Position numbers and translations under genes: made by a program | In this document: in pieces, positions 1,201 through 56,170 of the stretch | Layout of the letters: each line of letters starts with the position of its first letter | How positions within the stretch are numbered: position 1 is the first letter of the stretch | Notes under the pieces: model-generated | What the model was told of the DNA's origin: nothing | Seen by the model: only the letters and a program-made list of their open reading frames with translations | The model's database searches: none | Assembly (NCBI GenBank): GCA_036382515.1 | Contig: DASVHQ010000009.1 | Span: 28,260 to 92,259, forward strand | DNA from: Polyangiales bacterium | Lineage (GTDB): Bacteria > Myxococcota_A > Polyangia > Polyangiales > JAFGIB01 | DNA: 64,000 nt | Direction: 5' to 3'

Positions 1201-2212
1201 GTGAGCTTCGAGATCTCCGCCAAAGCCAGTGACCTGCACGCTCGCCTACTCGAGTTCGCCGTGAACGAGTGTCTGCCGGCGGAGGCAGTGTTCGCTGCCC
1301 AGCTGCAGACCAGCGCCGACCGCTGGCAACCCGTTCCGATCATCGAGGACCTCAAGAAGCGCGCGAAGTCCCTCAGGCTATGGAACCTGTTACTGCCCGA
1401 GAGCGAGCGCGGCGCCGGCCTCACCAACCGGCAGTACGCACCCATCCATGTGCGAGATCATGGGCCACTACTCGCTCGCGGCCGAAGCCACGAACTGTTC
1501 CGCTCCCGACACAGGGAACATGGAGGTGCTGGAGCGCTATGGCACTGCCGAGCACAAGAAGCGGTGGCTCGAGCCTCTGCTAGCCGGTGAGATCCGCTCG
1601 GCGTTCTGCATGACCGAACCCGACGTCGCATCGTCGGACGCGACCAACATCCAGTCGACCATCCTGCGCGACGGCGATCACTACGTGATCAACGGCCGCA
1701 AGTGGTGGTCGTCCGGTGCCGGCGACCCGCGCTGCAGGATCTTCGTGTTCATGGGCAAGACCGACCCGAGTGCCCCACGGCGCTCGCAACAGTCGATGAT
1801 CCTGGTTCGGCGCGACGCGCCGGGAGTCACCATCAAACGCATGCTCAACGTGTTCGGCTACGATCACGCCCCGCACGGCCACGGCGAGATCGAGTTCAAG
1901 AACGTGCGGGTCCCAGCATCCAACCTCTTGCTCGGCGAGGGACGAGGCTTCGAGATCGCACAAGGGCGATTGGGACCCGGTCGCATCCACCATTGCATGC
2001 GCACCATCGGCGTGGCCGAACGCGCGCTGGCTCTGCTCTGCAAGCGTGCGCAGTCCCGCATCGCGTTCGGGCAGAAGCTCTCGGAGATGGGCTCGGTGCG
2101 ACAAGACATCGCCAAGTCGCGCATGGAGATCGACCAAGCGCGCCTGTTGACGATGCACGCGGCGCGACACATGGACCAGGTCGGCAACAAGGAGGCTCGC
2201 ACCGAGATCGCG
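1201..2212 (+). pseudogene. acyl-CoA dehydrogenase (FadE/ACAD10-11-like), frameshifted and 3'-truncated
   Basis: GTG 1201 follows an AGGGAGA RBS. The N-part is in the frame of ORF 1144..1590 (...[23 protein letters not shown]). It continues in the next frame (ORF 1448..2329: [42 protein letters not shown]). Family similarity ends after ...NKEARTEIA (~2212); the C-terminal ~90-100 aa expected for the family are absent. Confidence 0.75.
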
Positions 2213-2259
2213 TTCGCTCTTGCCACGGCCTTTCCACGGCATCGCCAAGGTTTGCGCCC

Positions 2260-2967
2260 TCACGGTGACGTCTGCACGCCTGCGGGCAGCACTTGCTCGC
2301 ACACGCTGTGTTTCGGCAGCGACTTCTGATCGGTGAGAGACCTACGGTCGAGCGTGCCGCCGTCATCGAAGACGGCGCACACCAGCGCGGGGTCTTGGCC
2401 ATCGAACGCGAAGGCGCCTGGCACGCTCAGCTGATTGCCGCAGCGTTCGAGCGGCAGCGGCGCCACGGGGAAGAAGGCGCGACCCCTTTGATAGACGACG
2501 ATCTGGACGCTTCCGAGCTGCGTGGGCGGACAGGTGATTTGTGCTTTGAAGCGGTCGCCCACCGCGAAGTGGGTGGGTGCGAGCAACTCGCCGCGGCTGC
2601 CCATGCGCACGAGCCCAAGGGCGAGGTCGCCGCCGCGGACGTGCATACGCGACGCAGGCGGCTCTAGCCCAGGACCCACAGGCGAAGGCGCGTGCACCAC
2701 CAACACCAGGAGCGCAGCTGCTGCAACTGCGAGCCCAGCGAATGCGAAACCAAAACGTGGGGCTGCGCGGACCTGCGGCGAACGCGGCAGCACCTGCGGC
2801 AGCGGGAGCAGCTCGATGACCTCCGCGGTCTGGGCATAGTAAGCCCTGCACGTGTGACACACGTCGAGGTGGTCATCGACGGCGCGACGGTCAGCGACAG
2901 AGAGCTCGTTCAAGCGGCGGCGCTCGAGCACCAAGTAGGAAAGTGGCTGAGCTATACAACGATTCAT
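2260..2967 (-). CDS. anti-sigma factor (zinc-finger ZAS type) with one TM and a periplasmic DUF4384-like domain
   Basis: [12 protein letters not shown] (HxxxCxxC) near the N-terminus and a hydrophobic segment [18 protein letters not shown]. The start overlaps the upstream sigma gene stop (ATGA at 2964-2967). C-domain contains [10 protein letters not shown]...[14 protein letters not shown]. Confidence 0.7.
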
Positions 2968-3437
2968 GGCGCGCCCTCCTCGCTCGCGGCGATCCCCGCA
3001 ACCACGGTCTCGACCGCTGCCAGGTATTTGCCGATCGTTTTGCGGCTCTTGCCCATGACCTCGGCGATCTCCTCCTGCGAGAAGTCATCCACGTAGCGAT
3101 ACACGAGCAGCTCCAGTTGCTCGGCATCGAGCGCGTGCGAGAGCTTGAACAGGAGATCGAGCTCGATCACTCGGTCTTCACAATTCGTGCGCGCCGGCAG
3201 CACGAGCGCCGCGTCGCTGTGCTTGAGCAAACGCGCGTGCGTCGAGCGATCACGCAAGAGATTGAGGCAGCGGTTGGTCACGGCTCGGTACAGGTACGGA
3301 AGCTCGAAGCTCGTTTCGCCACGTTGCAACAGCTCGACGAACAACGCCTGCACCACATCGCGCGCATCGTCGCGATTACGCAGGATTCGTTCTGCTTTGC
3401 GCACCAGCGCGGAGCCATAGCGAAGGTACGCCTCCAT
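2964..3437 (-). CDS. ECF-type RNA polymerase sigma factor
   Basis: 157 aa. Region 2-like DARDVVQALFVELL...YLYRAVTNRCLNLLRD and region 4 HTH FSQEEIAEVMGKSRKTIGKYL. Coupled to the anti-sigma gene. Confidence 0.85.
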   Translation of the reverse strand: MEAYLRYGSALVRKAERILRNRDDARDVVQALFVELLQRGETSFELPYLYRAVTNRCLNLLRDRSTHARLLKHSDAALVLPARTNCEDRVIELDLLFKLSHALDAEQLELLVYRYVDDFSQEEIAEVMGKSRKTIGKYLAAVETVVAGIAASEEGAP

Positions 3438-3440
3438 GGA

Positions 3441-4481
3441 TCAGCTGCAGATGCCGGCCGTCACGATGAAGTTGAAACAGCCGAGGCACAACGAGATGTG
3501 GGCATCGCAGGGCTCGTCGAGGCATTCGCGACCTGCTCCGTCGCACTGGCCGCTCTCGCAATCGTCTGCACTCGTGCACAGCGCGCCCTTGGGTCTAGTG
3601 TGGTCTCCGGGCGCGCACAGCTTTGGCAGCGGCTGTGAAACCGGCACGCCGGTGCTCGCAGCAGCGGCCTCGTCCGCTGGATAGTCACAGCTTGAAGCAG
3701 CGGCACAACCGGACCCGTCACAGCATTCCGAACAGGCACCTGCGCAGCACACGCCGGTCTCACACTCGACGTCGCGTCCGCAGTGCGCGCCGAATGCGAC
3801 GCTTCCGGCTGCCGCGCAAGCGTGCACGTCGTGATATGCGGCCCACTCAGGTGCGCACAGTTCACCAGCGCCGCAGTCCTTGTCCTCGGCGCAGCCCTGA
3901 CACAGCCCGGACGAGCACAGACCAAGCTTGCACTCCTCGGCTTTCTCGCACAGCGCACCGAGCGGCCTGCCAACAGTCACGACGGGCACAGCGGTGCAAC
4001 TCATCCCGTCGACCGCGCGCAGCTTGGCGAGAATCGCCGTGCCGGTTCCCTGCTTGCGCACGATGAAGCGCACGCCTTTGTACCAACTGGGTGGCGTGAT
4101 GAAGAAATGCTTGGGAGCAAAGTCGCTGGGCAGAAGACGTTCGCTCCAGTCGATCGTGCCATCGTCATCGAAGTCCAGCTCGACGAACATCTTGGCGTGG
4201 TCATCGACTTTGGCGATCATCGAGAAGTCGAAGCAGTGGCTGCGCTGGTCAGCGGTCGCGTTCAGCTGCGTCAGGCGCGCACCATTGCTCTCGAACGACA
4301 CCGCGTAGTCGTCGGTGTGCCAGGTGCCGACACGCGCGATCTTGCCTGCTACTTCCCAGCCACAGGGCCGATCGCCACACCAGCGATCGACCAGCGGGTT
4401 ACGAATCAGGTCGGCGTTCTGGCAAGCGCCCAGCAAGAGCGCGCACGCGAACAGGCGGAGAATACGTTGTGCTTGTGTCAT
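3441..4481 (-). CDS. secreted Cys-rich lipoprotein (beta-sandwich-like N-domain plus CxxC-dense C-domain)
   Basis: ORF 3441..4784 trimmed to ATG 4481 (MTQAQRILRLFACALLLGAC, a lipobox). The C-half is dense in Cys repeats (CEKAEECKLGLCSSGLCQGC, CGRDVECETGVCC). The stop lies 3 nt before the sigma start. Confidence 0.7.
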   Translation of the reverse strand: MTQAQRILRLFACALLLGACQNADLIRNPLVDRWCGDRPCGWEVAGKIARVGTWHTDDYAVSFESNGARLTQLNATADQRSHCFDFSMIAKVDDHAKMFVELDFDDDGTIDWSERLLPSDFAPKHFFITPPSWYKGVRFIVRKQGTGTAILAKLRAVDGMSCTAVPVVTVGRPLGALCEKAEECKLGLCSSGLCQGCAEDKDCGAGELCAPEWAAYHDVHACAAAGSVAFGAHCGRDVECETGVCCAGACSECCDGSGCAAASSCDYPADEAAAASTGVPVSQPLPKLCAPGDHTRPKGALCTSADDCESGQCDGAGRECLDEPCDAHISLCLGCFNFIVTAGICS

Positions 4482-4485
4482 GGCA

Positions 4486-6309
4486 TCAATTCCAAGTCCG
4501 AAGCCGAAGACCAACCAGCGTCTCGAAACCGCCGGTGTCGTGCGTCTCACCCAACGCGTTCTGCAGCACGGGCGCGTAGCTGAAGCGCTCTTCCACCATG
4601 AAGCCCAGGTACTCCAAGGGCATGACTTCAAAGCCGATGCCGGCGAAGACGTGGTAGCCCGTGAAGCTTTGATTGACGCGCCTCGTGGTCGTGCTGCGGT
4701 CGTCGAGGCTCGTGTTCTGGTCGGCAAAGGCCGATTCAGCGACGATGGCGTCGAAGGTGGTCCAGGTGAATGAAGGCCCCCCACCCGCGCGAGCGAATAA
4801 GTTCAGCTGACGCAACTCACCGAAACCCCAGTCCGCTTGCGCCCAGAGGCCGAGCGCCGTGCTCGTGTACTTGAAGGTCTGATCTGCGCTGCCATCCGTG
4901 CGTGCGTACCTCGCGCCATCCAAGTTCGCGTACGAGAGCCCGAGCACGAGGAAGGGCTTCACGCGATAGCCGAGGCCGATGTTGTAGCGCACCAGGTCGC
5001 TCGATTTCTCCATGAAGCCGAAGTCACCGAGGCGGTGCGAATAGCTATCGTCGCGCTGGGGACCCGCGGCGATTCCCGCCAGCAACTCGATGACGAAACC
5101 TTCGTCTCCGCCCTTGGAGCGTAGCTTGGGCGGCGGCCCCCACCGCACGATCCGCAGCCGGTAGCGCCCACTGTCGCTGCCGCCGCCCTTAGCTGCAGAT
5201 ACCGCCGCGACACTCTGCGTGCACAGCTCTCCGGTCAGCGTCGTCACGGTGTGGGACACGAGCTTCAGCGTGCAGCGATAGACCTTGCTGGCTTGCCGCA
5301 AGGTCGCCGCGTAATCCCCGGAGGGAAGCGCAAGCTCCAGGGGCTGGCCGCGCACCTTTTCGATCTCGGCCAGGGGCGTCCAACTCGGCAAGCTCTGCAC
5401 CAGCACGCGCGCATTCAGGTTGGCTGGCAAGCGTACGCGCGCATCGGCGTCCCCCGGGTGCGTGAGGTCGAGGTCGCCCTTGCCCTTGAGGCTCGTTTCG
5501 AGCGTGGCGTGCTGCTCGCCTACTTGAGTCGCGGCCGTGGTCGCGAGTGTACGGTTGTAAGCGTATTGGTAGGCTTCCGACAACGTCACTTGCCCATCGC
5601 CGTTCTGATCACCCGCGCCACGCAGCCCCGCGAGCCAATGATGGGTGAAGTAGCCAGCCTTGAGCTCATCGGACTCTTGGCTCAGCTCGCGCCCACTGCT
5701 GGAAGCGATCACCACCATGCCCTCCGTGTCCAAACGCTGCACGGAGTTGAAGGAGAAGTCCGTCGCGGCATCCGCGCCCTTCACTCGCGAGAATGCACCG
5801 CTCTGGCAAGCATCGAGCACGACCACCGAGACCGTGGCCGGCATGGCGGCGAGCTGCGCGCGCAGATCCGCGAGCGGCAGCTGCTCGGAGCCGAGGTTCA
5901 GCGCATCGGCGCGTGCGTGCCCGGAGTAGTAGAAGTAGAAGCGCGTCGGCTCGCCGCGCGAAGCGTGCGCCGCGAGCAACCCCCGGATGCCGTCGATGGC
6001 GGCCTGCAACTGCGCCGCCGTTGGCTGCAGGAGCCGCGTGATCTGAGCGGCCGGAACACCGCCGAGCGTCGTCCAGACTTCAGCCACGCGTTGCGCGTCT
6101 TGCTCGGCGTAACGCAACGAGCCCTGCCCGGGCCCGCCAGTATTGGTGCCCACGACCAGCGCATAGCGACCGAGCGTCTGGTCGACGGCCGCGTCTTGCG
6201 TGGTTGGCGGCGCGCTTGGTGGCTGGTCGGCGCGCACCGACGCAGGCGAGCCCGGCACGCTCACGGCCAAGAGGAGGGAACTCGAGATGATACGAAGCCA
6301 AGGCCTCAT
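4486..6309 (-). CDS. caspase-like (peptidase C14) protein with signal peptide and C-terminal beta-barrel-like domain
   Basis: ORF 4486..6783 trimmed to ATG 6309 (MRPWLRIISSSLLLAVSVPGSPASVRA). His/Cys dyad context FYFYYSGHA and VVVLDACQSGAF. The last ~200 aa have an alternating-hydrophobic strand pattern ending GLRLRTWN. The stop lies 4 nt before the lipoprotein start. Confidence 0.75.
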   Translation of the reverse strand: MRPWLRIISSSLLLAVSVPGSPASVRADQPPSAPPTTQDAAVDQTLGRYALVVGTNTGGPGQGSLRYAEQDAQRVAEVWTTLGGVPAAQITRLLQPTAAQLQAAIDGIRGLLAAHASRGEPTRFYFYYSGHARADALNLGSEQLPLADLRAQLAAMPATVSVVVLDACQSGAFSRVKGADAATDFSFNSVQRLDTEGMVVIASSSGRELSQESDELKAGYFTHHWLAGLRGAGDQNGDGQVTLSEAYQYAYNRTLATTAATQVGEQHATLETSLKGKGDLDLTHPGDADARVRLPANLNARVLVQSLPSWTPLAEIEKVRGQPLELALPSGDYAATLRQASKVYRCTLKLVSHTVTTLTGELCTQSVAAVSAAKGGGSDSGRYRLRIVRWGPPPKLRSKGGDEGFVIELLAGIAAGPQRDDSYSHRLGDFGFMEKSSDLVRYNIGLGYRVKPFLVLGLSYANLDGARYARTDGSADQTFKYTSTALGLWAQADWGFGELRQLNLFARAGGGPSFTWTTFDAIVAESAFADQNTSLDDRSTTTRRVNQSFTGYHVFAGIGFEVMPLEYLGFMVEERFSYAPVLQNALGETHDTGGFETLVGLRLRTWN

Positions 6310-6481
6310 GAAAGTGCTCCATGCAGCAGCGGTCTCTCGGAAGACACGCGAGCCCCGAGAAAATGGGAAGCGGCCGCCCAACAATCCGCTTGGGCGTCGG
6401 CGCAGCCTATCCCAGCTCGACCAGCCCGCGTGGCCCGCTTGACCATCGAGATACGGGTGTGTATGTGAAAGAGATGCGCGA

Positions 6482-6790
6482 TCAAAGCGCTGCACCGAGC
6501 AGTCGAAGCACGGGCTTGCCGGCCGACGGGCCCAAGAGCTGCTGCCCCAGCGCCGAGGCCTCGTAGCAAGCGTGCAGCGCGGCTTGTCCGACGGGCTGTG
6601 CGTCGCGCTTGGAGTCGCCGCCTTCGTGCTCATCGACGTATCGACCGTGCTTGCGCAGCACCCGCTCACCCCTTCGGGTGTCACGAAGCGCGTCGATGCG
6701 CGCAGCGACACGCTCGGCGAGCTCCTGCGCCTCGGCCACCGAGGGCTCGGGCAGCGGCAGAAAGCGCGGTGCGCCGCCGTCACGCAAAGA
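6482..6790 (-). mobile_element. internal fragment of an IS91/ISCR-family (rolling-circle) transposase
   Basis: Lower part of ORF 6482..7303 reads GGAPRFLPLPEPSVAEAQELAERVAARI...RVLRKHGRYVDE...ALHACYEASALGQQLLGPSAGKPVLRL. This parallels the ISCR1/IS91 segment ARFRWVKAPTSPELTQL..RVGRYLERQGLL..ITYRIAVGSQAGRKVFTL. There is no start and no catalytic region. Confidence 0.4.
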
Positions 6791-6815
6791 CGGGCTTTCG
6801 GCTTGGTCGATCGGA

Positions 6816-7862
6816 GAAGAAGCTCTCTCGGGGTTTCGCGCTGCGATTTCCATTCGCGTCATCACGCCGGGTGCGACCGCTGGTGAGATGCTGCATGTGC
6901 TCTCGTCGCTCGAACGCCGGTCATCGCGCTGGGACACGGATGTGGAGAGCGCGCGTGCGGCGTTGAGCGCGGCGGTGTCTTTGCTACTGCGCTTGCTCGG
7001 GCGCGATCCCGATCCTGCGAAGAGTCGCGAGCACGTGCTCTTGTCGGTACTCGCCGAACGGCGCTTGCTTGCCGGGCAATCGGCGGAACTTGGTGCGCTA
7101 CTGCATGACCTTGCGGGGCCGCCGCTCTCGCACATTGGCGCGCTCGAGATCGATGATTTCATGGCCAAGCACCAGCGCAAGGAGCTGGCCGCGGCTCTGA
7201 ACACGCTGCTCGCGTCACCGACGTTTGCGAGTTGGCGGCAAGGGCTCACACTCGACATCGCGGAGTGGATGAAGAACGATGGGCCGACCACGCCGGTCAC
7301 CATCGTGAGTGTCGCGCATCTCGACGACGAAGAGCGTGCGCTCGTGCTCGGCGTGCTCTTGGAGGAGGTGCTGTCTTGGGTGCGCGCCCTACCCGGCTCG
7401 CAACGCTTGCGAGGTCTCGTGGTGTTCGACGAGGTCTACGGCTTCCTTCCGCCGCATCCCAACAACCCTCCCACCAAGCGGCCGCTGGTGGCGTTGATGA
7501 AGCAAGCCCGTGCCTTCGGTGTGGGCGTGGTGGTCGCCACGCAGAACCCGATGGACCTCGACTACCGCGCGCTGAGCAACGCCGGCTTGTGGTGCATGGG
7601 GAGGTTGCAGACCGATGCCGACCGAGCGCGCGTGGTGGAGAGCATCGCGGGCAGCGAAGAGGGCGGTGGAGGCGATGCCGCCTCGGAGCTCACGCAGGTT
7701 CTCAAGCGGCTAGCGCCACGGTGGTTTCTCGTTCGCAACGCGCACCTGCCGGAGCAAACGCTGCTGCTGCAGCCGCGCTGGACGATGTCATTCATGCGCG
7801 GGCCCATGACGCGCTGGGAGATCCAAGAGGCCAGAAGGCTCACGCGACGCCTGGCGAGCTGA
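6816..7862 (+). pseudogene. HerA/DUF87-like AAA ATPase, 5'-truncated (Walker A part missing)
   Basis: ORF 6609..7862. Family-like sequence only from about aa 70 (FRAAISIRVITPGATAG...SREHVLLSVL...VVFDEVYGFLPP Walker B...ARAFGVGVVVATQNPMDLDYRALSNAGLWCMGRLQTD). The P-loop N-domain seen in full-length relatives is absent and the upstream sequence is unrelated. Confidence 0.6.
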
Positions 7863-8061
7863 GCAGGTAGGTCAGGCAGGTACAGGAGATCGATCGCCAC
7901 ACGACGTGGGGCTTGCGTGGCACCCGCCGGAGATGGCCGCGTTCCGTGCAGGCAAGCGCGACTTCGTGATGCTCGCCGAGTTGGTCGAAGTCGCGAATGG
8001 GCAAGGCCGCGTTGATGAGCCTCCCCGAGTTTCTCCACCAGCAGGACGGCGCGCGTGCTGG

Positions 8062-8124
8062 GCGCACCAAAGACAAAACCCCGAGCTGACGCGCGGTCAG
8101 CCCGGGGTTTTGTCTTTGGTGCGC
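8062..8124. terminator. bidirectional intrinsic terminator (long perfect hairpin)
   Basis: GCGCACCAAAGACAAAACCCCG (8062-8083) is the perfect reverse complement of 8103-8124. An inner GCTGAC/GTCAGC stem is also present. The GC core is followed by TTTTGTCTTT on both strands. It lies between convergent genes ending at 7862 and 8136. Confidence 0.75.
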
Positions 8125-8135
8125 GCGAGCGCGGC

Positions 8136-9152
8136 TCACATGGTGCCAGGAAACTTCTTCGTGATGGCCTCGACCTTGTCGAGCAACTCCTTGGAGTAGG
8201 TGCGACCGACCATCTTCAGGCGCAGCTTCTCGCCGACGTCAGCCCATTCCTTCTCGTTGGCGAACGTGAAGGGCGTGAGGCCGTGCGTCTGCAGCTTCAC
8301 GAAGGTCTTCTCGTCGTCCTCGCGGAACTGCTTGATCGTCTTGACCGATTGCTCCGCCATCACGTCGTCGAGCACTTTCTGGTCCGCCTTGCTCAGACCT
8401 TCCCAGGTCTCCTTGCGCAGCAGAAACGCGCCCTGGATGACGTCGACCGGCGTGGCAGAAACGAAATGCGTCTGGCTGGTCCAGCGGAACGCGGTGCCAA
8501 GGACGGATGAAATCCATACGGTATCGATCATGTTCGTGGTGAGCCCACCGTAGACCTCGTTCAGGTCGAGCGGCACGCCCGTGACGCTGATCATCTTGTA
8601 GAACTCCTTGAGCAACGCGCTTTCGGGATAGAGCCACGGTCGGCCCTTGCGCAGATCGTCGAAAGTCCGAACGGGCGTCTTGCTGAAGATGCGAACGCGA
8701 CCGCCATCCCACCACGACATGATCTTGAAGCCGTTCTCCCAGGCTTCCTTGTTGAACGTGGGAGAAAGCGCTTCGCGCACGGCGTCGACCTGCTTGTAGT
8801 TGAAGAAGGTCTGCGGAGCCATGAGGATGGTGCACTGGCGCACGAACTGCGCGACCACGTCGACACCGAGTGGGGCGCCGTCGATCTGGCCGGAGCGCAT
8901 CTTCCGCATCACGGTGTGGTCGTCGCCGGCGCTTCCTCCGAAGTAGGTCTTGAACTGGATGCGCCCACCCGTGGCCTCCTGGAGGCGCTGGTTGTAGCGC
9001 TTCTCTTGGATGGCGACGTCCGGTGTACGCGGAATCATCGTCGCGACCTTGATGACGACTTGTGCGCCATCGCCTTCGGCGTGCAGACGCGCTCCAGCTG
9101 GCACTGCGAGAAGCAGCGCGGCAATCAGAACAATAGAGACAGACGCTCGCAT
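8136..9152 (-). CDS. TRAP-transporter DctP-family periplasmic solute-binding protein (orphan, no DctQM nearby)
   Basis: 338 aa with a signal peptide (MRASVSIVLIAALLLAVPAGA). Overall DctP-like pattern, recalled rather than searched. Confidence 0.6.
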   Translation of the reverse strand: MRASVSIVLIAALLLAVPAGARLHAEGDGAQVVIKVATMIPRTPDVAIQEKRYNQRLQEATGGRIQFKTYFGGSAGDDHTVMRKMRSGQIDGAPLGVDVVAQFVRQCTILMAPQTFFNYKQVDAVREALSPTFNKEAWENGFKIMSWWDGGRVRIFSKTPVRTFDDLRKGRPWLYPESALLKEFYKMISVTGVPLDLNEVYGGLTTNMIDTVWISSVLGTAFRWTSQTHFVSATPVDVIQGAFLLRKETWEGLSKADQKVLDDVMAEQSVKTIKQFREDDEKTFVKLQTHGLTPFTFANEKEWADVGEKLRLKMVGRTYSKELLDKVEAITKKFPGTM

Positions 9153-9643
9153 CAGATCCTCCTACGATGACGGGCATGCGCGTGGGCAGCCCGCCGCCTG
9201 TGGTACAGGCTCGCACCCGAGCCCACCACGTATCCCGCGCGCAATATACGCAGAAACACTTGCCAAGGCGACCAGCAACGCACGGGTGACCGGGTCGACG
9301 TTTTTCCGTGCAAACGCGCTGCGCGGTCGCGATCCGGGGCGCATGTCTGGTCGTGCTGACATCCGGCCCTGGACGCCGCGCGGCCGAGTCTATTCATATG
9401 CTCGCCTCCCTACATTGGCGCCGTGGCCTCGCCCATGCGCACTGCCGGCCTCGCAACTGCTGCATCGATTGCCGGCGCTCGGCCGGTTCCGCCCTACTTT
9501 GCTGCACTGCTTGAGCTTGCACGCCGTAGCCCAAGCTGCGGCACGGCAGGTCCTTGGCTGCCGGACCCGCGGCGCGTCGGTGTTCGCGCAATCCGCCAGC
9601 TGCCTCCGCATATGGGAACCTCGAGCCTACGCTCCAAACGCGC

Positions 9644-10812
9644 ATGACCCAGGCGGATCCACCGACGCAGGGCGAACTCGTGGCTGGCCGTTACCGACTG
9701 CAACACGAGCTGGCACGGGGCAGGGTCGGCGTGGTGTACCGCGCGCACGACGTCTCGACCGGGCACGAAGTCGCGTTCAAGCGGTTGCTCGACAGCGCCG
9801 CGCACAGCGCGCGCATCACGGCGCTCTTCGAGCGTGAATACCGAACACTCGCGCGCATGAAGCTCGCTCGGCATGTGGGACGTGTTGTACGCGGAGGTCT
9901 CGATCGCCGCAGGCGATCCGTTGCGTGCGAAGCAGGCGCTGGAGCATGCGCTCGGAAGTGTCGCGATGCGCAACGAAGGTTTCTCCACGATTCGCGCTAA
10001 CCTCGAGATTCATCTGGCGCGGGCCGACTCGGAGTTCGGGGAGCACGCGGCCGCGATCGCACGTATCGACCGACTGATGGAACAGCTGCGGGACGCCGAT
10101 CAGGCTGTGAATCGGTTTCCTGCATGAGACACGGGCCCTTGTCGCAGCGCGGGCGGGCGATGCGGGTCGACGCAGTGCGCATGTGGAACTGATGCGGCAG
10201 TGGTACGCGCTCACTCGACACCCTTCTCTGCTGATGCGCGCCCAGCGCGTCGCCGACACGCTGCACGAGCTGCCGACCCGCGCGCAGGCGGTCGCGTCAG
10301 CCCCCAGCGCCGAACAGGAAACCGTCACGCGCGTCACGACCCAACGACAGGTCGCGGGGATCGAGGCCGTGTTCGACGACTGCAAGAACGCCGAGGAACG
10401 TGCGGCTCGCGCGCTGCACATCATCGTCGAGCAATCAGCCGGCACGGCGGGGCACCTGTACGTCGCGAAGCACGGCAGGTTGCGCCTCACGGCGACGCTC
10501 GAGGCTCAGGAACCCAGCGACGAGGTCGAGCGCATGCTGCAAGAATGCCTCGACCAGGCGCAATCGGCCGACCTGTCCGCGACGCCGACAGATACACGCG
10601 CGCCCGCCGAGCTTGCCGTGATCTCGAGCGGTGGCGAAGCCGGTCCGGACGATGACCGATATGCCGCTATCATGCTGCGCACCGGCGGACGCGAGAAGAA
10701 GTTCGTCGGAGCGGTCGCGCTGCGCGTGGGCAGCGAGCTGCCGCGCCCGGTGCGCAAGGGTATGCTGGAGATCATCGCGCGCCACGTGGCCCCGGAGCTC
10801 GACGACGTATAG
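9644..10812 (+). pseudogene. relic of a large Ser/Thr protein kinase (N-lobe stub, TPR-like piece, C-terminal GAF-like piece in three frames)
   Basis: ATG 9644: GRYRLQHELARGRVGVVYRAHDVSTGHEVAFKRL...LFEREYRTLARMKL, then similarity breaks at ~9860. ORF 9873..10127 (a different frame) is helical-repeat-like. ORF 10183..10812 (third frame) is the C-terminal domain. The catalytic loop and most of the protein are absent. Confidence 0.6.
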
Positions 10813-10838: not shown

Positions 10839-13800
10839 TCAGTGAAAGTCACGGCTACCAGACCGTGTCGGAGTTCGCGTGGTCTCGGGCAGCCAGAACT
10901 CCTCTGCCACCAGGTGCACGACGCCATCCTGCGCCTGAATCTTGCCCGTCACGCCGAGAAACGAGCTGGTGCGTGCGAGCAGCGCATACGCGTCGAACAC
11001 GCTCTTCCACAACACGATGTTCGCGAAACCCGTTTCGTCTTCGAGCGTCATGAACGTCACGCCCCCCGCCGTTCCCGGACGTTGGCGACAAATCACCAAG
11101 CCCGCGTACCGAACGCGTGATCCGTCGGGGGAGCTAGCCAGCTCACTTGCATCCGGTAACCCTTGCGCACGCAACTCTTCGCGCAGCACGGCGAGCGGAT
11201 GCGCCCGAGCGCTGTGACTCATCGCACCGTAGTCCCAGGCGATTTGCTCGATGGGCAAGAGCGGCACGAAGCGCGCACGACCAGGCCCGAGCGCAACTGC
11301 CAGCGGCACCTCTCGATCTCGCGACAGCCCACGCACCGTCCACAGCGCTTTCCGACGCGATCGACCGAAGCACTCGAACGCCCCGGCCTGTGCCAGTGCC
11401 GAAAGATCTTTGGCGTCCAGCTCCGCGCGCCGCACGAAGTCTTCGAGGGAGACGATCTCACCCTGCTGCTGTGCGTTTTCGATGTGGGCGCGCTGCACGC
11501 TGCCGAGACCCTTCACGTAACGCAAGCCCATGCGCACGTCAGGGCCCTCCAGCGTGCAATCCCAGCGGCTTGCACGCACGTCGACCGAACGAATCACGAG
11601 ACCGTGTCGCTTGGCGTCGTCGACGATGGTCGCAGGCGCGTAGAAGCCCATGGGCTGTGCATTGAGCAAGCTGCACGTGAACTCCGGCAGATGGTGGCAG
11701 CGCAGGTACGCAGTGGCATATGCGATGAGCGCAAAGCTCGCGGCATGACTCTCCGGAAAGCCGTACTCACCGAAGCCCAGGATCTGCTTGAACACGCGTT
11801 CTGCGAATTCGAGGGGTATGCCTTTTTGCTGCATGCGTTGCAGCAGACGTTCCTTGTGTGACTCGATGCGCCCGGTCTTTCGCCAGGCCGCCATGTCGCG
11901 TCGCAGCTGATCGGCCTCGCCGGGCGTGTAATCCGCAGCCACCACGGCAAGGCGCATCACTTGCTCCTGGAAGAGCGGCACACCCTTGGTCTTTTCGAGC
12001 ACGGGGATCAAACACTCGTGCGGGTAGCTGACCGGCTCTTCGCCACTTCGACGCCGCAGATAGGGATGCACCATGCCACCGGTGATGGGCCCGGGCCGCA
12101 CGATGCTGACTTCGACGACCAGGTCGTAAAAATTGGCAGGCTTGAGCCTCGGCAACATCGCCATCTGCGCGCGGCTTTCGATCTGAAACACGCCCACGGT
12201 GTCGGCACGCTGGATCATGCTGAACGTTTCGGCATCGGCATCTGGAATCGTGGCCATGGAAAGCTCGAGGCCGTGCTGCTGCCGCAAGAGGTCGAAACAC
12301 TTGTGAAGCTGGGTGAGCGCACCGAGGCCTAGCAAGTCCACCTTGAAGAGACCGATCGCCTCGACGTCGTCCTTGTCCCACTGGATCACGGTGCGGCCGT
12401 GCATGGCGCCGTTTTCGATAGGCACCAGATCGTGCACGGGCTCGTGGCCGAGCAAGAAGCCACCCGGATGGATCGAGAGGTGTCTTGGAAAATCGAGGAT
12501 CTCCTCGCTCAGCGAAAGCAGGCGCGAGTGCACGGGCGCGTCGAGATCGAAGCCTGCCAGCTGCAACGTCTGCGCCTCGGCCTTGTCCCAGTGCGAAAGC
12601 AGCTTGGCCAGACGGTCGAGCGAGGTCTCCGGTAGACCCAGCGCTCTACCCACGTCACGCACCGCCGAGCGCGAGCGATAACGAATCACGTTGGCGACCA
12701 TGGCCGCGTGCGTGCGCCCGTATTTTTCGTAGACGTGCTGGATGACTTCCTCGCGACGCTCGTGCTCGATGTCGAGATCGATGTCGGGCGGTTCAGCCCG
12801 CTCCACCGACAAAAACCGCTCGAAGAGCAGGCCCATGCGCACCGGATCGATGGCGGTGATGGTCAGGCAGTAACAGACCACCGAATTGGCGGCAGAACCG
12901 CGACCCTGACACAGGATGCCCTGCGTACGGCAGAATTCCACGATCTCCCACATCGTCAGGAAGTAGCCGCAGTAGTCGAGCTGCTCGATCACCGCGAGCT
13001 CCTTGTCGAGCTGAACGAGCACGGAAGCCGGTAGCTGCGCACCGTAGCGCTTCACGGCCCCGCATGCGACCAGCGTGCGCAACCACTGCGCCGAGGTATT
13101 CCCATCCGGCAAGCGCTCGGAGGGGTAGCGATAGCGCAGCTCACTCATCGAAAACTCGCAGCGCGCAGCGACTTCGTCACAGCGTTCGAGCAGCGCGGGG
13201 TCGTCCGCGAAGAGCGCCGCCATGGCGTGCGGCGTCTTGAGCGCATGCTCGGCGTTGGGTTTCAGCAACGTGCGTGCCTGCGACAGGGTCACCCCGTGCC
13301 GGATGCAAGTGAGTACGTCTTGCAAGGGCCGACGTGCTGGCAAGTGATAGAGCACTTCGACCGCGGCCAACAGCGGCACGCCATGGCGTACGGCGCGCTC
13401 GCGCAGCAACGCTTCGGTCTGCGGCTCCGAGGCGCGGAAGTGTCGAGCCACCATGGCATAAAGCCGGTCGCCAAACGCCTGCAAGAGCAGGCCGGCAATC
13501 GCGCTCGGGTCCGTACGCCCCACGAGCAAGCTACGCTCTCCGCCCCACAGAGCGATCAATCCCGCCGCATGCTCACAAATCTCGCCCCACGAAACGGAAC
13601 TCTTACCCTTTTCGTGCCGCAATCGTCCCTTGGTGATGAGTCGGCACAGATTTGCGTAACCTTGCCGGCTCTGCGCGAGCAGCACGAGCGTGGAGCCGTC
13701 TTCGAGCGTGAGCTCGGAGCCCACGATCAACTTGATGCCGAGCTCGCGGGCCTTGAGATGTGCACGCACGCTACCGTAGACGCCGTCCCGATCGGTGATG

Positions 13801-13913
13801 GCGATCGCGGGCAAGCCCAACCGCTGTGCTTCCAGCACCAGCTCGTCGGGATGGCTCGCACCCTCCAGGAACGAGAAGTTGGTCTTGCACCACAGCGCGG
13901 CACGGGCTCGCAT
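10839..13913 (-). CDS. dnaE2: error-prone DNA polymerase III alpha subunit DnaE2 (ImuC)
   Basis: ORF 10839..13970 trimmed to ATG 13913 ([28 protein letters not shown]-domain N-terminus). ATGA overlap with the imuB stop. About 1024 aa. Last gene of the lexA-imuA-imuB cassette. Confidence 0.9.
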
Positions 13914-15490
13914 CAGCACACCTCGCCGTGCAAGCAAAGCCGTCTGCGCTGCCGGTCGTGATAGACCCACAACAAGTCACCGCGGCGCGTGAGCACGAAC
14001 TGGTATTCGCGATGCGCTTCGCGCAACCACCACCCCCCTGACACGATGTAAGGCCCTGCGAGGTGGGTCACGGGGCCGTACGTGGCGCCGGCGATCAACC
14101 AGCCGTCATCGCGCAGATGGCGCGCTGGCGCCGAGAGCTTCAGCGGCTTGCTGAACACCCGGCGAATCAAGGGACGCCGCTCGAGCGACGCGGCCGCGCT
14201 TTCTTCGTAAGCCACCGTAGGCAGACGCACGATGCGTGTCTGCGCAACCACCCGCCTCGGAAGCTTCACCTCGCGGAGCGGCTGCCAGATGAAGCTCGCT
14301 TCGGGCAAATGCCCTGGTGACAAATGCGCCTGCACCACGGCGTCTTCGCCCAACTCGGCGCGCAGACGTGCCAGCGCGCGATTGGCAGCGGCGAGGTCGC
14401 GACGTGGTTGCTCCACGAACACGCGTAGCTGCTCGGGCGTGGTCGGCGCCCCGCTGGCTTCGAGCGTGATCTCGATGATGCCCGCTTCCAGCGAGAGTGT
14501 TTCGAGGCGCAGCCGCACGATATCCATGAGCTGCACGACATCGAGCGTTGGCACCGCCGGCCGTAGCACCTCGGGGCCGAGCACACCCTGGGCACGGTCC
14601 AGCTTGCAGGTGATCGACAACGCGGCCAGTGCCTCGGCGCGCAACACCAGCTGCGGCAAGAGCGCATCGAGCAAGCGTTTCACGATAAAGAGCAGGCGCG
14701 TGGCGTCGCTCTCGGCCTCTTCGAGATTTTCGTGCTGGACGAGCGGTTCAAGCCACGGACTGGGCGTGAACGGCAACAAGAGCTCGAGCGCGGCCAGTTG
14801 ATGGATGCGATACGCATTCTTTCCGAAGCGAGCCAGGAGTCCCGTTGCTGGCAGCTGCAACAAGCCATCGACCGTTCGCACGCCGAGCTTGTCGAGCACG
14901 TCGCAAAACTCGGGCTCGATGTCGAGCAACGAGAGCGGCACGCCAGCCAGCGCCAATCGTTCTTCCTTGGCCTCCTCGAAAACGCGCACCGCTCGATACG
15001 CACGCGCCACGGCATATGTTCCGAAACGGGAAAATCCCACGACGATGCTGGCAACGAAGTCTTGCGCCAAAAGCGTTGTGCGCAACTCGCCCGCCCAGCG
15101 CACGAGCTTCGGATAGAGCCGCCCTAGCCCACTGGCATCCAGCCAGAACACGCCCTGCCCGGCGGCCCGCTCACCTGCCGCACTTGCATCGGCCACCTCG
15201 ACGTGCGGAGAAAACTTCCAGAGCAGCGTCTTGAGCTCTGTCAGCGCCGCTTGCACCTCGGCTTCGGCCACGACGTCTGCACGCAAGCCTCGCGCGAGCG
15301 AGAGCGCGACCGCATAACTCTGACCCACGCGCGCGCCGGCACGCCGTGCCTGCTGATTGGTCCACAACACCACACCCTGGGGCCGGTCCTCGCTCACCAC
15401 GGCGACCGGCCAGCCGCGCCACTCTCGTTTGCGTCGCAACAAGAGCTGTAGCGGCAGCGCTCCGACGCTAACGCAAGCCCAGCGGTCCAC
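13913..15490 (-). CDS. imuB: ImuB, Y-family polymerase-like protein
   Basis: N-terminus [18 protein letters not shown]. 525 aa. Located between imuA and dnaE2. Confidence 0.85.
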
Positions 15491-56095: not shown

Positions 56096-56170
56096 GGTGC
56101 CGTAGCCAAGCGGTTAGGCAATGGTTTGCAAAACCATCACACACCGGTTCGAATCCGGTCGGCACCTCCA
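56096..56170 (+). tRNA. tRNA-Cys (anticodon GCA), CCA encoded
   Basis: Hand-folded. 7-bp acceptor stem GGTGCCG/CGGCACC. Anticodon stem ATGGT/ACCAT with loop TTGCAAA. T-arm ACCGG-TTCGAAT-CCGGT. Discriminator T followed by CCA. Confidence 0.9.

Follow-up and report, generated by a model that had tools for sequence, protein, structure and literature searches.

A four-gene cassette with a single conserved promoter

The 64,000-nucleotide (nt) stretch of Polyangiales DNA analysed here (part of contig DASVHQ010000009.1, hereafter the window) carries on its minus strand a compact cassette of four genes, G1 to G4. They are predicted to encode, in that order, a caspase-family protease with a C-terminal outer-membrane barrel, a lipoprotein, a sigma factor of the extracytoplasmic function (ECF) type, and a zinc-associated anti-sigma (ZAS) factor (Table 1). 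The genes are tightly packed—4 nt lie between G1 and G2, 3 nt between G2 and G3, and the stop codon of G3 shares a 4-nt ATGA with the start codon of G4—and both the four open reading frames (ORFs) and their spacing are exactly as an earlier note on this DNA had described them. The mechanical ORF of G1 extends upstream to 6783; we place its start at the ATG at 6309 because a signal peptide follows this codon, a GGAG precedes it, and the N-termini of homologues align there.

Inspection of the DNA upstream of G1 first revealed a bipartite motif, for which we searched both strands of 1.3 Mb from 53 related loci using the pattern TTCCCA-N14-17-[CG]G[TA]GT[CT]. The search returned 34 matches, 32 of which lay directly upstream of G1 and on its strand; a looser form of the pattern has an expectation of 0.02 per 360 nt. 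The family consensus reads cGGTTCCCA-N12-TcGCGTGTCat (GGTTCCCA-N12-TCGCGTGTCA), with identical spacing in 29 of the 32 copies. Within the window the pattern matches once (6369-6343); its -10 element ends 33 nt ahead of the ATG of G1, with a GGAG ribosome-binding site 9 nt ahead of the same codon. Given its GTC-rich -10 element, its fixed spacing, and its location, 20-130 nt ahead of an ECF-encoding operon's first gene, we consider this motif a promoter of the ECF-autoregulated type, one that G3 itself presumably recognises. The ATGA overlap of G3 and G4 and, in 32 loci, GGTTCCCA-N12-TCGCGTGTCA upstream of the operon would fit an ECF factor that is co-transcribed with its cognate anti-sigma factor from a bipartite promoter under its own control. 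A scan of positions 1900-6700 for sigma-70-like promoters and intrinsic terminators found neither. The close gene spacing, the single conserved ECF-type promoter before G1, and the absence of internal signals argue that the four genes form one operon, as had been suggested earlier from their arrangement.

Table 1. Features of the four-gene cassette, in positions of the window
Feature	Position	Strand	Evidence
ECF-type promoter, conserved, TTCCCA-N13-CGCGTGTC	6343..6369	minus	pattern search across loci
G1, caspase-family (orthocaspase-like) secreted protease with C-terminal outer-membrane barrel, predicted, 607 aa	6309->4486	minus
G1 signal peptide, residues 1-27 (...SVRA/D)	6229..6309	minus	sequence reading; homologue N-termini align and are hydrophobic
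G1 caspase (Peptidase_C14) domain, residues 47-260	5530..6171	minus	Pfam, AlphaFold2, Foldseek, PDB profile search
G1 K177-G178, candidate autoprocessing site in the loop after the catalytic Cys	5776..5781	minus	K in 87/87, G in 87/87
G1 beta-sandwich, residues 281-366, conserved Cys346 and Cys363	5212..5469	minus	AlphaFold2 strands with pLDDT >90; invariant cysteines
G1 linker, disordered and variable, residues 367-402	5104..5211	minus	pLDDT <50 at 374-398
G1 K374-G375, candidate barrel-release site at the start of the linker	5185..5190	minus	K in 86/87, G in 85/87
G1 OmpA-like beta-barrel, 8 strands, residues 403-607	4489..5103	minus	AlphaFold2, Foldseek, Pfam in homologues
G2, lipoprotein, 346 aa	4481->3441	minus
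G2 jelly-roll, resembling a carbohydrate-binding module, residues 21-165	3987..4421	minus	AlphaFold2, Foldseek; conserved family core
G2 C-terminal Cys-rich repeats (C-x5-C-x-S-G-x-C type)	3444..3986	minus	alignment; number varies
G3, minimal ECF sigma factor, 157 aa	3437->2964	minus
G3 sigma-2 (residues 4-65) and sigma-4 (residues 102-140)	within 2964..3437	minus	Pfam/NCBIfam
G4, single-pass ZAS anti-sigma factor, 235 aa	2967->2260	minus
G4 cytoplasmic zinc-type anti-sigma domain, C4, H33, C37, C40 (CHCC)	2833..2967	minus	alignment, zf-HC2, PDB profile
G4 transmembrane helix F72-V91	2695..2754	minus	20-residue hydrophobic stretch, aligned in all orthologues
G4 R111-G112, candidate site-1 cleavage site, 20 residues beyond the transmembrane helix	2632..2637	minus	[KR] in 32/32, G in 31/32
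G4 periplasmic domain, residues 111-235, four conserved cysteines	2263..2637	minus	alignment

A caspase-like protease predicted to face the periplasm

The N-terminal domain of G1 matches Peptidase_C14 (PF00656) with 30.1 bits against a cutoff of 21.4, and the same profile matches all 23 of 23 G1 homologues (best E 3.4e-15). Both residues of the catalytic dyad, His131 in YYSGHA (5917-5919) and Cys168 in LDACQSG (5806-5808), are invariant among 87 full-length homologues. An AlphaFold2 model built on the alignment of these 87 sequences reached a mean predicted local distance difference test score (pLDDT) of 82.5, with values of about 90 over the caspase domain and above 90 in the barrel, and Foldseek comparison of the modelled N-terminal domain with the PDB recovered metacaspase 4 (6w8r) and legumain (4d3x). 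Metacaspases also ranked first in a profile search of PDB sequences, and the invariant D71 of G1 falls on the Asp in the C-x-N-D motif of metacaspases; the NCBIfam model caspase_w_EACC1 scores 62.6 bits, under its cutoff of 140. Pfam, the 87-sequence alignment, AlphaFold2, and Foldseek thus bear out the C14 fold and intact dyad that the earlier note had read from the sequence.

With an invariant dyad and metacaspases as its nearest relatives, G1 can be taken as a probable active protease, and its position on the orthocaspase/metacaspase branch suggests that it would cleave after Arg or Lys; one report states that orthocaspases cut after basic residues (PMC6426788). The beta-sandwich that follows the caspase domain was assigned to no Pfam family.

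In the model, the C-terminal barrel consists of eight long strands spanning residues 403-606. Its leading Foldseek matches in the PDB were OmpA, NspA, Ail, OmpX, OmpW, and OprG (E 1.6e-8 to 1e-4), with template modelling (TM) scores, normalised to the target, of 0.5-0.69; for OmpA, OmpX, and NspA the scores were 0.65-0.69. The Pfam profile OMP_b-brl gives 18 bits for the window protein, under the cutoff of 28.7, and matches 9 of 23 homologues at E up to 1 (best 1.3e-6); the model and the structural matches agree with the outer-membrane anchor proposed earlier, even though the window protein itself falls below the Pfam cutoff. Where a C-terminal beta-signal would end in an aromatic residue, the protein reads ...GLRLRTWN in the window, and TWE, VAF, GAL, or GYTL in homologues. 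In the AlphaFold2 model, the turns on the side of the termini are 2-5 residues long and loops L1 and L3 18-19 residues; L1 is conserved, the long L3 (523-541) variable. Both termini of 8-stranded barrels are periplasmic. From the barrel fold and the short turns on the termini side, we infer that the protease hangs in the periplasm beneath the outer membrane, its caspase and beta-sandwich domains probably held by a flexible linker some 35 residues long. The modelled topology therefore speaks against a place on the cell surface.

A lipoprotein with a ligand-binding-type jelly-roll

In the window, G2 has a canonical lipobox, LLGA-C20, with Cys20 encoded at 4422-4424. This cysteine is invariant among 36 orthologues; the lipobox is canonical in the window, Labilithrix, and Polyangiaceae proteins, and non-canonical in the Kofleriaceae, which read LGATDC, so that G2 may be soluble in some lineages. 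The AlphaFold2 model (pLDDT 88.2) comprises an N-terminal beta jelly-roll followed by a Cys-rich region. Foldseek matched the jelly-roll to carbohydrate-binding modules (CBMs)—CBM61 (2xon) at TM 0.68, a porphyran-binding CBM (8xmz) at 0.76, and CBM16 at 0.65-0.71, all scores being target-normalised, with E-values of 1e-6 to 1e-5—and CBM4 and CBM22 were also among the matches. By sequence, G2 falls under no Pfam family, its jelly-roll has no Pfam or NCBIfam match that would make it a member of a CBM family, and none is precomputed for 23 database homologues; the NCBIfam model Myxo_Cys_RPT scores 18.2 bits on the Cys-rich part, under its cutoff of 25. The lipobox and the model agree with the earlier description of a lipoprotein comprising a beta-sandwich and a disulfide-rich part, and G2 is best modelled as a (lipo)protein of the periplasm whose jelly-roll is of the ligand-binding type and resembles sugar-binding domains.

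Across the 36 orthologues the jelly-roll is the kept core and the Cys-rich tail varies in length. Three orthologues (loci L009, L018, and L043) lack the tail entirely and consist of the jelly-roll only, and at locus L029 (2116-4148) G2 is replaced by three tandem jelly-roll-only paralogues, each with a lipobox-like signal. This triplication suggests that the jelly-roll could be a diversifying sensor or partner module.

The jelly-roll also contains a calcium-type loop, DFDDDGTID (residues 103-112; 4146-4175), with invariant Asp and Gly, and G1 has an EF-hand-like DxDGDG loop (residues 234-245), with the sequence GDQNGDGQVT at residues 231-242 (5584-5619), in which Asp and Gly are likewise invariant. 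Loops of the EF-hand-like DxDxDG type thus occur in both proteins, where Pfam EF-hand matches are weak, and their presence hints at calcium dependence.

An ECF sigma factor and a single-pass anti-sigma factor

G3 scores above the cutoffs of all three sigma profiles—Sigma70_r2 (32.9 bits, cutoff 24), Sigma70_r4_2 (34.7, cutoff 25.7), and TIGR02937 (56.7, cutoff 42.9)—which, at a length of 157 aa, fits the ECF sigma factor named in the earlier note. Searching PDB sequences with G3 gave no match at E up to 1e-3. The main text of the ECF reclassification paper nowhere mentions a caspase, so that source provides no ECF group for G3.

In G4, C4 and each of the metal-ligand-type residues of H33-x3-C37-x2-C40 are conserved in at least 90% of 32 orthologues. 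The zf-HC2 profile gives the window protein 19.1 bits, under its cutoff of 22.2, and matches 21 of the 32 orthologues (best E 2.7e-7). Compared with the PDB, the G4 family profile found weak matches in RslA (E 0.007) and, over the ZAS and transmembrane regions, in DdvA (8rot_B, E 0.014). The conserved CHCC residues, together with the zf-HC2 matches among orthologues, uphold the assignment of G4 as a ZAS anti-sigma factor with HxxxCxxC and one transmembrane helix, and its zinc-type domain would be expected to hold G3 in the cytoplasm.

The periplasmic domain of G4 is more distinctive. A HMMER scan of 1.84 billion representatives with this domain of the window protein as the query recovered 437 relatives (representatives at 50% identity). 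Among the best 150 of the 437, the proteins are mostly about 210-250 aa long (apart from fragments and a few longer ones), the domain is always C-terminal and confined to this anti-sigma architecture, and no fusion to a caspase occurs. The domain has no Pfam relative among the 32 orthologues and no PDB relative by profile search. The earlier note had likened it to DUF4384 (PF14326), a family it described as frequently fused to caspase domains; this likeness was not reproduced by profile search, with 0 matches among 34 proteins (32 orthologues searched at E up to 1 and two variant anti-sigma factors at E up to 0.1) and no caspase fusion among the same best 150. In Bacteroidota caspases that had been taken as possible examples of DUF4384, the domains present are WD40. 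We also rejected homology between the periplasmic domain of G4 and either G1 or G2, for which hhalign gave probabilities of 0.6% and 1.7%, respectively.

Conservation across the Myxococcota

By scanning one genome per species, we assembled 45 Myxococcota loci, whose contents were established by searching six-frame ORFs with the four proteins and their family profiles. Labilithrix (with the cultured L. luteola among its members), Kofleriaceae, Haliangiales, Sandaracinaceae, and Polyangiaceae are among their sources. Full-length G1 is present in 39. Of these, all 30 with at least 2.6 kb of downstream sequence carry G2 to G4 behind it, with order and strand unchanged; a further five loci are complete on shorter DNA, for a total of 35 of 39, and the other four are cut by contig ends. 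Such constancy of gene order, in 30 of 30 species-level loci, is far from chance. The co-occurrence across Myxococcota that the earlier note proposed to test is thereby supported for the class Polyangia, and it persists even where gene order is permuted.

Two loci illustrate such permutation. L041 (3241-6747) reads Lcl_C Cys-rich lipoprotein, sigma factor, ZAS anti-sigma factor, caspase, and the C-terminus of its caspase looks alpha-helical, with hydrophobic segments, rather than forming a barrel. L045 (Bradymonadales; 6454-10585) reads sigma factor, anti-sigma factor, caspase, lipoprotein-like ORF. The periplasmic domains of both anti-sigma factors differ from that of G4, as does the L045 lipoprotein from G2. 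On the strength of gene content and order, these variants, together with the G2 triplication at L029, confirm that the four families are functionally linked.

The linkage ends at the borders of the cassette. Proteins encoded on the flanks of the window cassette have no counterpart beside other cassettes, and a conserved fifth gene was rejected on this ground. Called genes around two homologues are unrelated: type II secretion pseudopilins with purD in one case, and a FecR/ECF pair in the other. Protein clusters common to about 20 loci probably reflect the synteny of related genomes.

Database relatives of G1 number more than 1000 (clusters at 90% identity); the close ones are full-length, and those with a named source are labelled caspase family protein and come from Polyangiales or Polyangia. 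Word-based homologue searches returned small sets (3 proteins for G4, 23 for G2), and the family sizes given here come from the other searches. DNA near-identical to positions 2260-6400 (word share from 1.00 to 0.5) was found only in metagenome runs from permafrost, soil, and peat, no RNA run matched either this locus or that of Labilithrix, and the nearest genome relative is the metagenome-assembled genome GCA_017881185.1, with a G1 that is 81% identical.

Candidate cleavage sites shared by G1 and G4

Three near-invariant pairs of a basic residue and glycine stand out in flexible segments of G1 and G4 that are otherwise variable (Table 1). The first, K177-G178, lies in the loop after the catalytic cysteine, which has a pLDDT below 50 at residues 172-174. 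Caspase-family enzymes autoprocess in the inter-subunit linker, and K177-G178 occupies that position. The second, K374-G375, is set among neighbouring columns that are conserved in only 16-53 of 87 sequences. The third, at residues 111-112 of G4, extends well beyond the 32 orthologues: among 149 representatives, the first position is [KR] in 143 of 144 and the second G in 145 of 145. Both rearranged loci, L041 and L045, keep all three sites, as RRKG or GVKG, AIKG or APKG, and VRIKG or VRLKG.

We also observed that residues 272-284 of G1 (5458-5496) and 108-119 of G4 (2611-2646) share the pattern hydrophobic-[RK]-G-x-G-[DE]-[VL]-x-L. The stretch follows the caspase domain in G1 and begins the ectodomain in G4; it is the sole alignment that hhalign returned, and it is not significant (E 0.1). 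By its sequence it could represent a pseudo-substrate/substrate pair.

A possible trans-envelope relay and its alternatives

We propose, tentatively and with somewhat less than even confidence, that the operon is a self-contained, autoregulated trans-envelope relay in which G1 starts the regulated proteolysis of G4. The proteolysis-gated signalling put forward in the earlier note thus still seems the likeliest mechanism, to which we add the conserved candidate sites of cleavage. G1 would be exported and its barrel inserted into the outer membrane, so that the caspase and beta-sandwich domains reach into the periplasm; G4 would span the inner membrane, its zinc-type domain holding G3 and its small disulfide-bonded domain exposed in the periplasm. 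The predicted topologies—G1 periplasmic under its barrel, and G4 with a ZAS domain, one transmembrane helix, and a Cys-containing C-terminal domain—would allow the two proteins to meet. A signal, which could be a ligand on G2 or else damage to the outer membrane or a fault in barrel assembly, would activate G1, which would mature itself at K177-G178 and possibly leave the barrel at K374-G375. Cutting after a basic residue, G1 would then clip G4 after R/K111, about 20 residues outside the membrane, and the remaining stub would pass to the general site-2 protease RseP, setting G3 free. G3 would transcribe its own operon, yielding more protease and partner protein in a positive-feedback switch. 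Such a switch would be self-amplifying because G1 comes first in the operon transcribed by the freed sigma factor. In its most specific form—G1 as a dedicated trans-acting site-1 protease that cuts G4 between the basic residue and glycine of V-K/R-G, matures and detaches itself, and thereby creates a bistable, self-amplifying switch—the proposal is a good deal more speculative, and we think it possible but rather unlikely to hold in every part.

Several points weigh against this relay. The basic-Gly motif was noticed after the fact; the three sites are hypothetical and may owe their conservation to structure, the one in G4 possibly as part of the first beta-strand. The preference for a basic P1 residue derives from family membership alone. 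Finally, if the sigma factor has no target but its own operon, given the single motif in the 64-kb window, G1 and G2 may be the output of the system and not its input.

This last point is the core of the strongest alternative, which we regard as a serious possibility while doubting it: G3 and G4 would be an ordinary stress-sensing ECF pair, and G1 and G2 merely its regulon, with G1 never touching G4. Sensing would then fall to the zinc/thiol chemistry of the ZAS domain (a redox response like that of RsrA or ChrR) or to the G4 ectodomain, and site-1 cleavage to a housekeeping protease; the outer-membrane-anchored protease and its glycan-binding partner would be induced for remodelling or repair of the envelope or for the processing of exported proteins. 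Many ECF operons co-transcribe effector genes. Consistent with an output role, the conserved promoter precedes G1 and G2, which would make them the first and most strongly induced products; no further copy of the motif lies within 8 kb at any locus or elsewhere in the 64-kb window, and the complete CHCC zinc site is conserved. Three observations are harder to accommodate. The periplasmic domain of G4 is specific to this operon family (437 representatives, with the architecture checked in the best 150); basic-Gly pairs are common to the flexible segments of G1 and the juxtamembrane region of G4, also where the ectodomains differ; and the association survives permutation of gene order, which fits both models yet is unusually strict for a mere regulon member.

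A variant of the proposed relay keeps the same course and changes the trigger. Here G1 would act as a sensor of outer-membrane assembly: as long as the beta-barrel assembly machinery (BAM) functions, the barrel would keep G1 sequestered at the outer membrane, and when BAM fails, unassembled G1 would accumulate in the periplasm and reach the inner-membrane anti-sigma factor, much as DegS senses unassembled porins, or by analogy with RcsF. A protease joined to a minimal 8-stranded barrel by a long disordered linker would suit this role, as would a barrel with no obvious function of its own, whose L1 is conserved and L3 variable, and the analogy with established envelope-stress logic points the same way. 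We nevertheless hold it improbable: L041 keeps the module though its barrel has seemingly been replaced by alpha-helical hydrophobic segments, the K-G pair in the linker suggests regulated release over failed insertion, and envelope-biogenesis genes are linked to the cassette neither in the window nor at the other examined flanks.

Slightly less probable again is that G2 is the substrate of G1, its Cys-rich part being matured or released as a secreted or surface factor whose expression the sigma pair times. The two genes are adjacent, 4 nt apart or overlapping, and G2 does consist of two parts with a variable, repeat-rich tail; against this, three orthologues and the three L029 paralogues lack the tail, with the jelly-roll retained throughout, and the junction between the domains carries no conserved basic-Gly pair or other invariant site.

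Among these smaller alternatives, the one with the least support, and in our view very unlikely, is a death or anti-phage defence effector, which the earlier note had entertained: a caspase-like executioner unleashed on infection or in development would have company in the caspase-family proteases of several bacterial defence systems, in the CBASS-CRISPR island controlled by DdvA/DdvS (PMC11506125), and in a generic PADLOC 'caspase' match on G1 (weak, 26 bits), but the protease domain is predicted to be periplasmic and membrane-tethered, the flanks are housekeeping and unconserved, no defence genes lie beside the cassette in the window or at the two loci with called genes, the caspase_w_EACC1 score is far under its cutoff, and a near-universal single cassette in one class is unlike patchy defence islands. 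PADLOC finds nothing for G2 or G4 and for G3 just CasR at 15.5 bits (E 0.0029); with generic or weak matches only, membership of a known PADLOC defence system was rejected.

Comparison with known systems

The nearest precedent for the proposed relay is DdvA/DdvS of M. xanthus, in which DdvA, a CHCC anti-sigma factor with a periplasmic TPR-CHAT caspase-family domain, is proposed to make the site-1 cut in its own linker, ahead of RseP (PMC11506125). The two systems come from the same phylum and share a single-pass anti-sigma factor with an N-terminal CHCC zinc domain, an ECF switch, a periplasmic caspase-superfamily His-Cys domain, and a flexible juxtamembrane linker as the proposed site-1 target. 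They differ in that the caspase-family domain is here a separate protein of the C14 (metacaspase-like) rather than the CHAT type, without TPR and anchored in the outer membrane by a barrel; in that G4 has only 235 aa, with an unrelated ectodomain of about 125 aa that lacks any protease motif; and in that a jelly-roll partner is present throughout, the promoter serves the operon itself, and no defence island is attached.

A second parallel is the type III-E craspase, whose Csx29 subunit (TPR-CHAT) cuts Csx30, a protein that binds the ECF sigma factor RpoE (bioRxiv 10.1101/2022.08.17.504292). There too, a caspase-family protease is encoded beside an ECF sigma factor and its binding partner, and a cut within a flexible linker of the sigma-binding protein is the signalling step, to which the step proposed here would be analogous. 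Craspase is, however, cytoplasmic and RNA-guided, belongs to CHAT and not C14, and works without a membrane relay, barrel, or ZAS domain; moreover, some Csx30 C-terminal domains are DUF4384, which by hidden Markov model search G4 is not.

The canonical pathways of regulated intramembrane proteolysis, DegS-RseA-RseP-sigmaE and PrsW-RsiW-RasP, resemble the cassette, as proposed here, in having a single-pass anti-sigma factor with a cytoplasmic sigma-binding domain and a periplasmic domain whose removal is required, a dedicated periplasmic site-1 protease, and an autoregulated operon. In contrast to these, the site-1 candidate here belongs to the caspase-fold cysteine proteases and is predicted to be held at the outer and not the inner membrane; its gene also opens the operon, and positive feedback on the protease would follow. 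FecR/FecI-type cell-surface signalling (a TonB-dependent transducer, with Prc and RseP) offers a similar three-compartment relay, in which an outer-membrane barrel with an N-terminal periplasmic domain communicates with the periplasmic part of an inner-membrane anti-sigma factor that controls an ECF sigma factor, but with a 22-stranded transporter in place of a minimal 8-stranded anchor, a signalling domain in place of a protease, and a FecR-type in place of a ZAS anti-sigma factor.

For the protease itself, the closest comparison is with orthocaspases and metacaspases (C14B; cyanobacterial proteins and plant MC4 and MC9), which share the p20-type domain, the FYYSGHA and DACQSG contexts, and a calcium-type loop; G1 differs in its predicted periplasmic location, its fusion to a beta-sandwich and an outer-membrane barrel, and its place in an operon with an ECF sigma/anti-sigma pair. 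As in OmpA, OmpX, and NspA, an 8-stranded barrel is joined by a flexible linker to a periplasmic domain, whereas that domain is N-terminal in G1, the reverse of the order in OmpA, and the passenger is an enzyme. Literature searches returned no description of this module and no characterised member with the architecture of G1.

To our knowledge, just a handful of site-1 proteases for ECF sigma release are known, and the only caspase-family roles in such release that we know to have been proposed are those of DdvA and, in the cytoplasm, craspase. If the most specific form of our proposal is true, G1 would be the first protease of the caspase family demonstrated to initiate regulated intramembrane proteolysis in trans, and a natural 'split' counterpart of the still-unproven model of DdvA autoproteolysis. 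Within a single class of social, predatory soil bacteria the module is widespread; it measures 4 kb and is self-contained, and one carrier, Labilithrix luteola DSM 27648, is in culture (locus L011, at about 4.027-4.045 Mb of NZ_CP012333.1). Caspase-initiated anti-sigma proteolysis thereby becomes directly testable at named residues (C168, K177, K374, and R/K111-G112), and bacterial caspase homologues gain a concrete non-death function to test. The modelled barrel of G1 would be an unreported way of anchoring an enzyme on the periplasmic face of the outer membrane, and synthetic biology could use the orthogonal pair of sigma factor and promoter (GGTTCCCA-N12-TCGCGTGTCA) as a part.

Surroundings of the cassette in the window

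The plus-strand acyl-CoA dehydrogenase gene beside the cassette (1144-2329) looks broken, its N-terminal part lying in a different frame from the rest (1144-1590 versus 1448-2329). Its C-terminal domain halts at position 91 of 150 of the profile, at about nt 2213 and 47 nt from the stop codon of G4, and no frame continues it. Upstream of the promoter lie two ORFs, 6609-7862 on the plus strand and 6482-7303 on the minus strand. One ORF, of 417 aa, has no Pfam match and a junk-like N-terminus; its C-terminal half resembles, by eye, a HerA/DUF853-type ATPase, and it may be a gene remnant. A mobile element as the cause of the unconserved flanks was rejected, as no flanking direct or inverted repeats beyond chance were found.

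Farther away on the minus strand (10839-15490), a DnaE-like ORF (1043 aa, by eye) is followed by an ORF with a borderline match to impB/mucB/samB (IMS; 22.9 versus 23.2 bits), and the pair looks like an imuB-dnaE2 mutagenesis cassette. A tRNA-Cys (GCA) gene on the plus strand at 56096-56170 is the only tRNA gene of the window.

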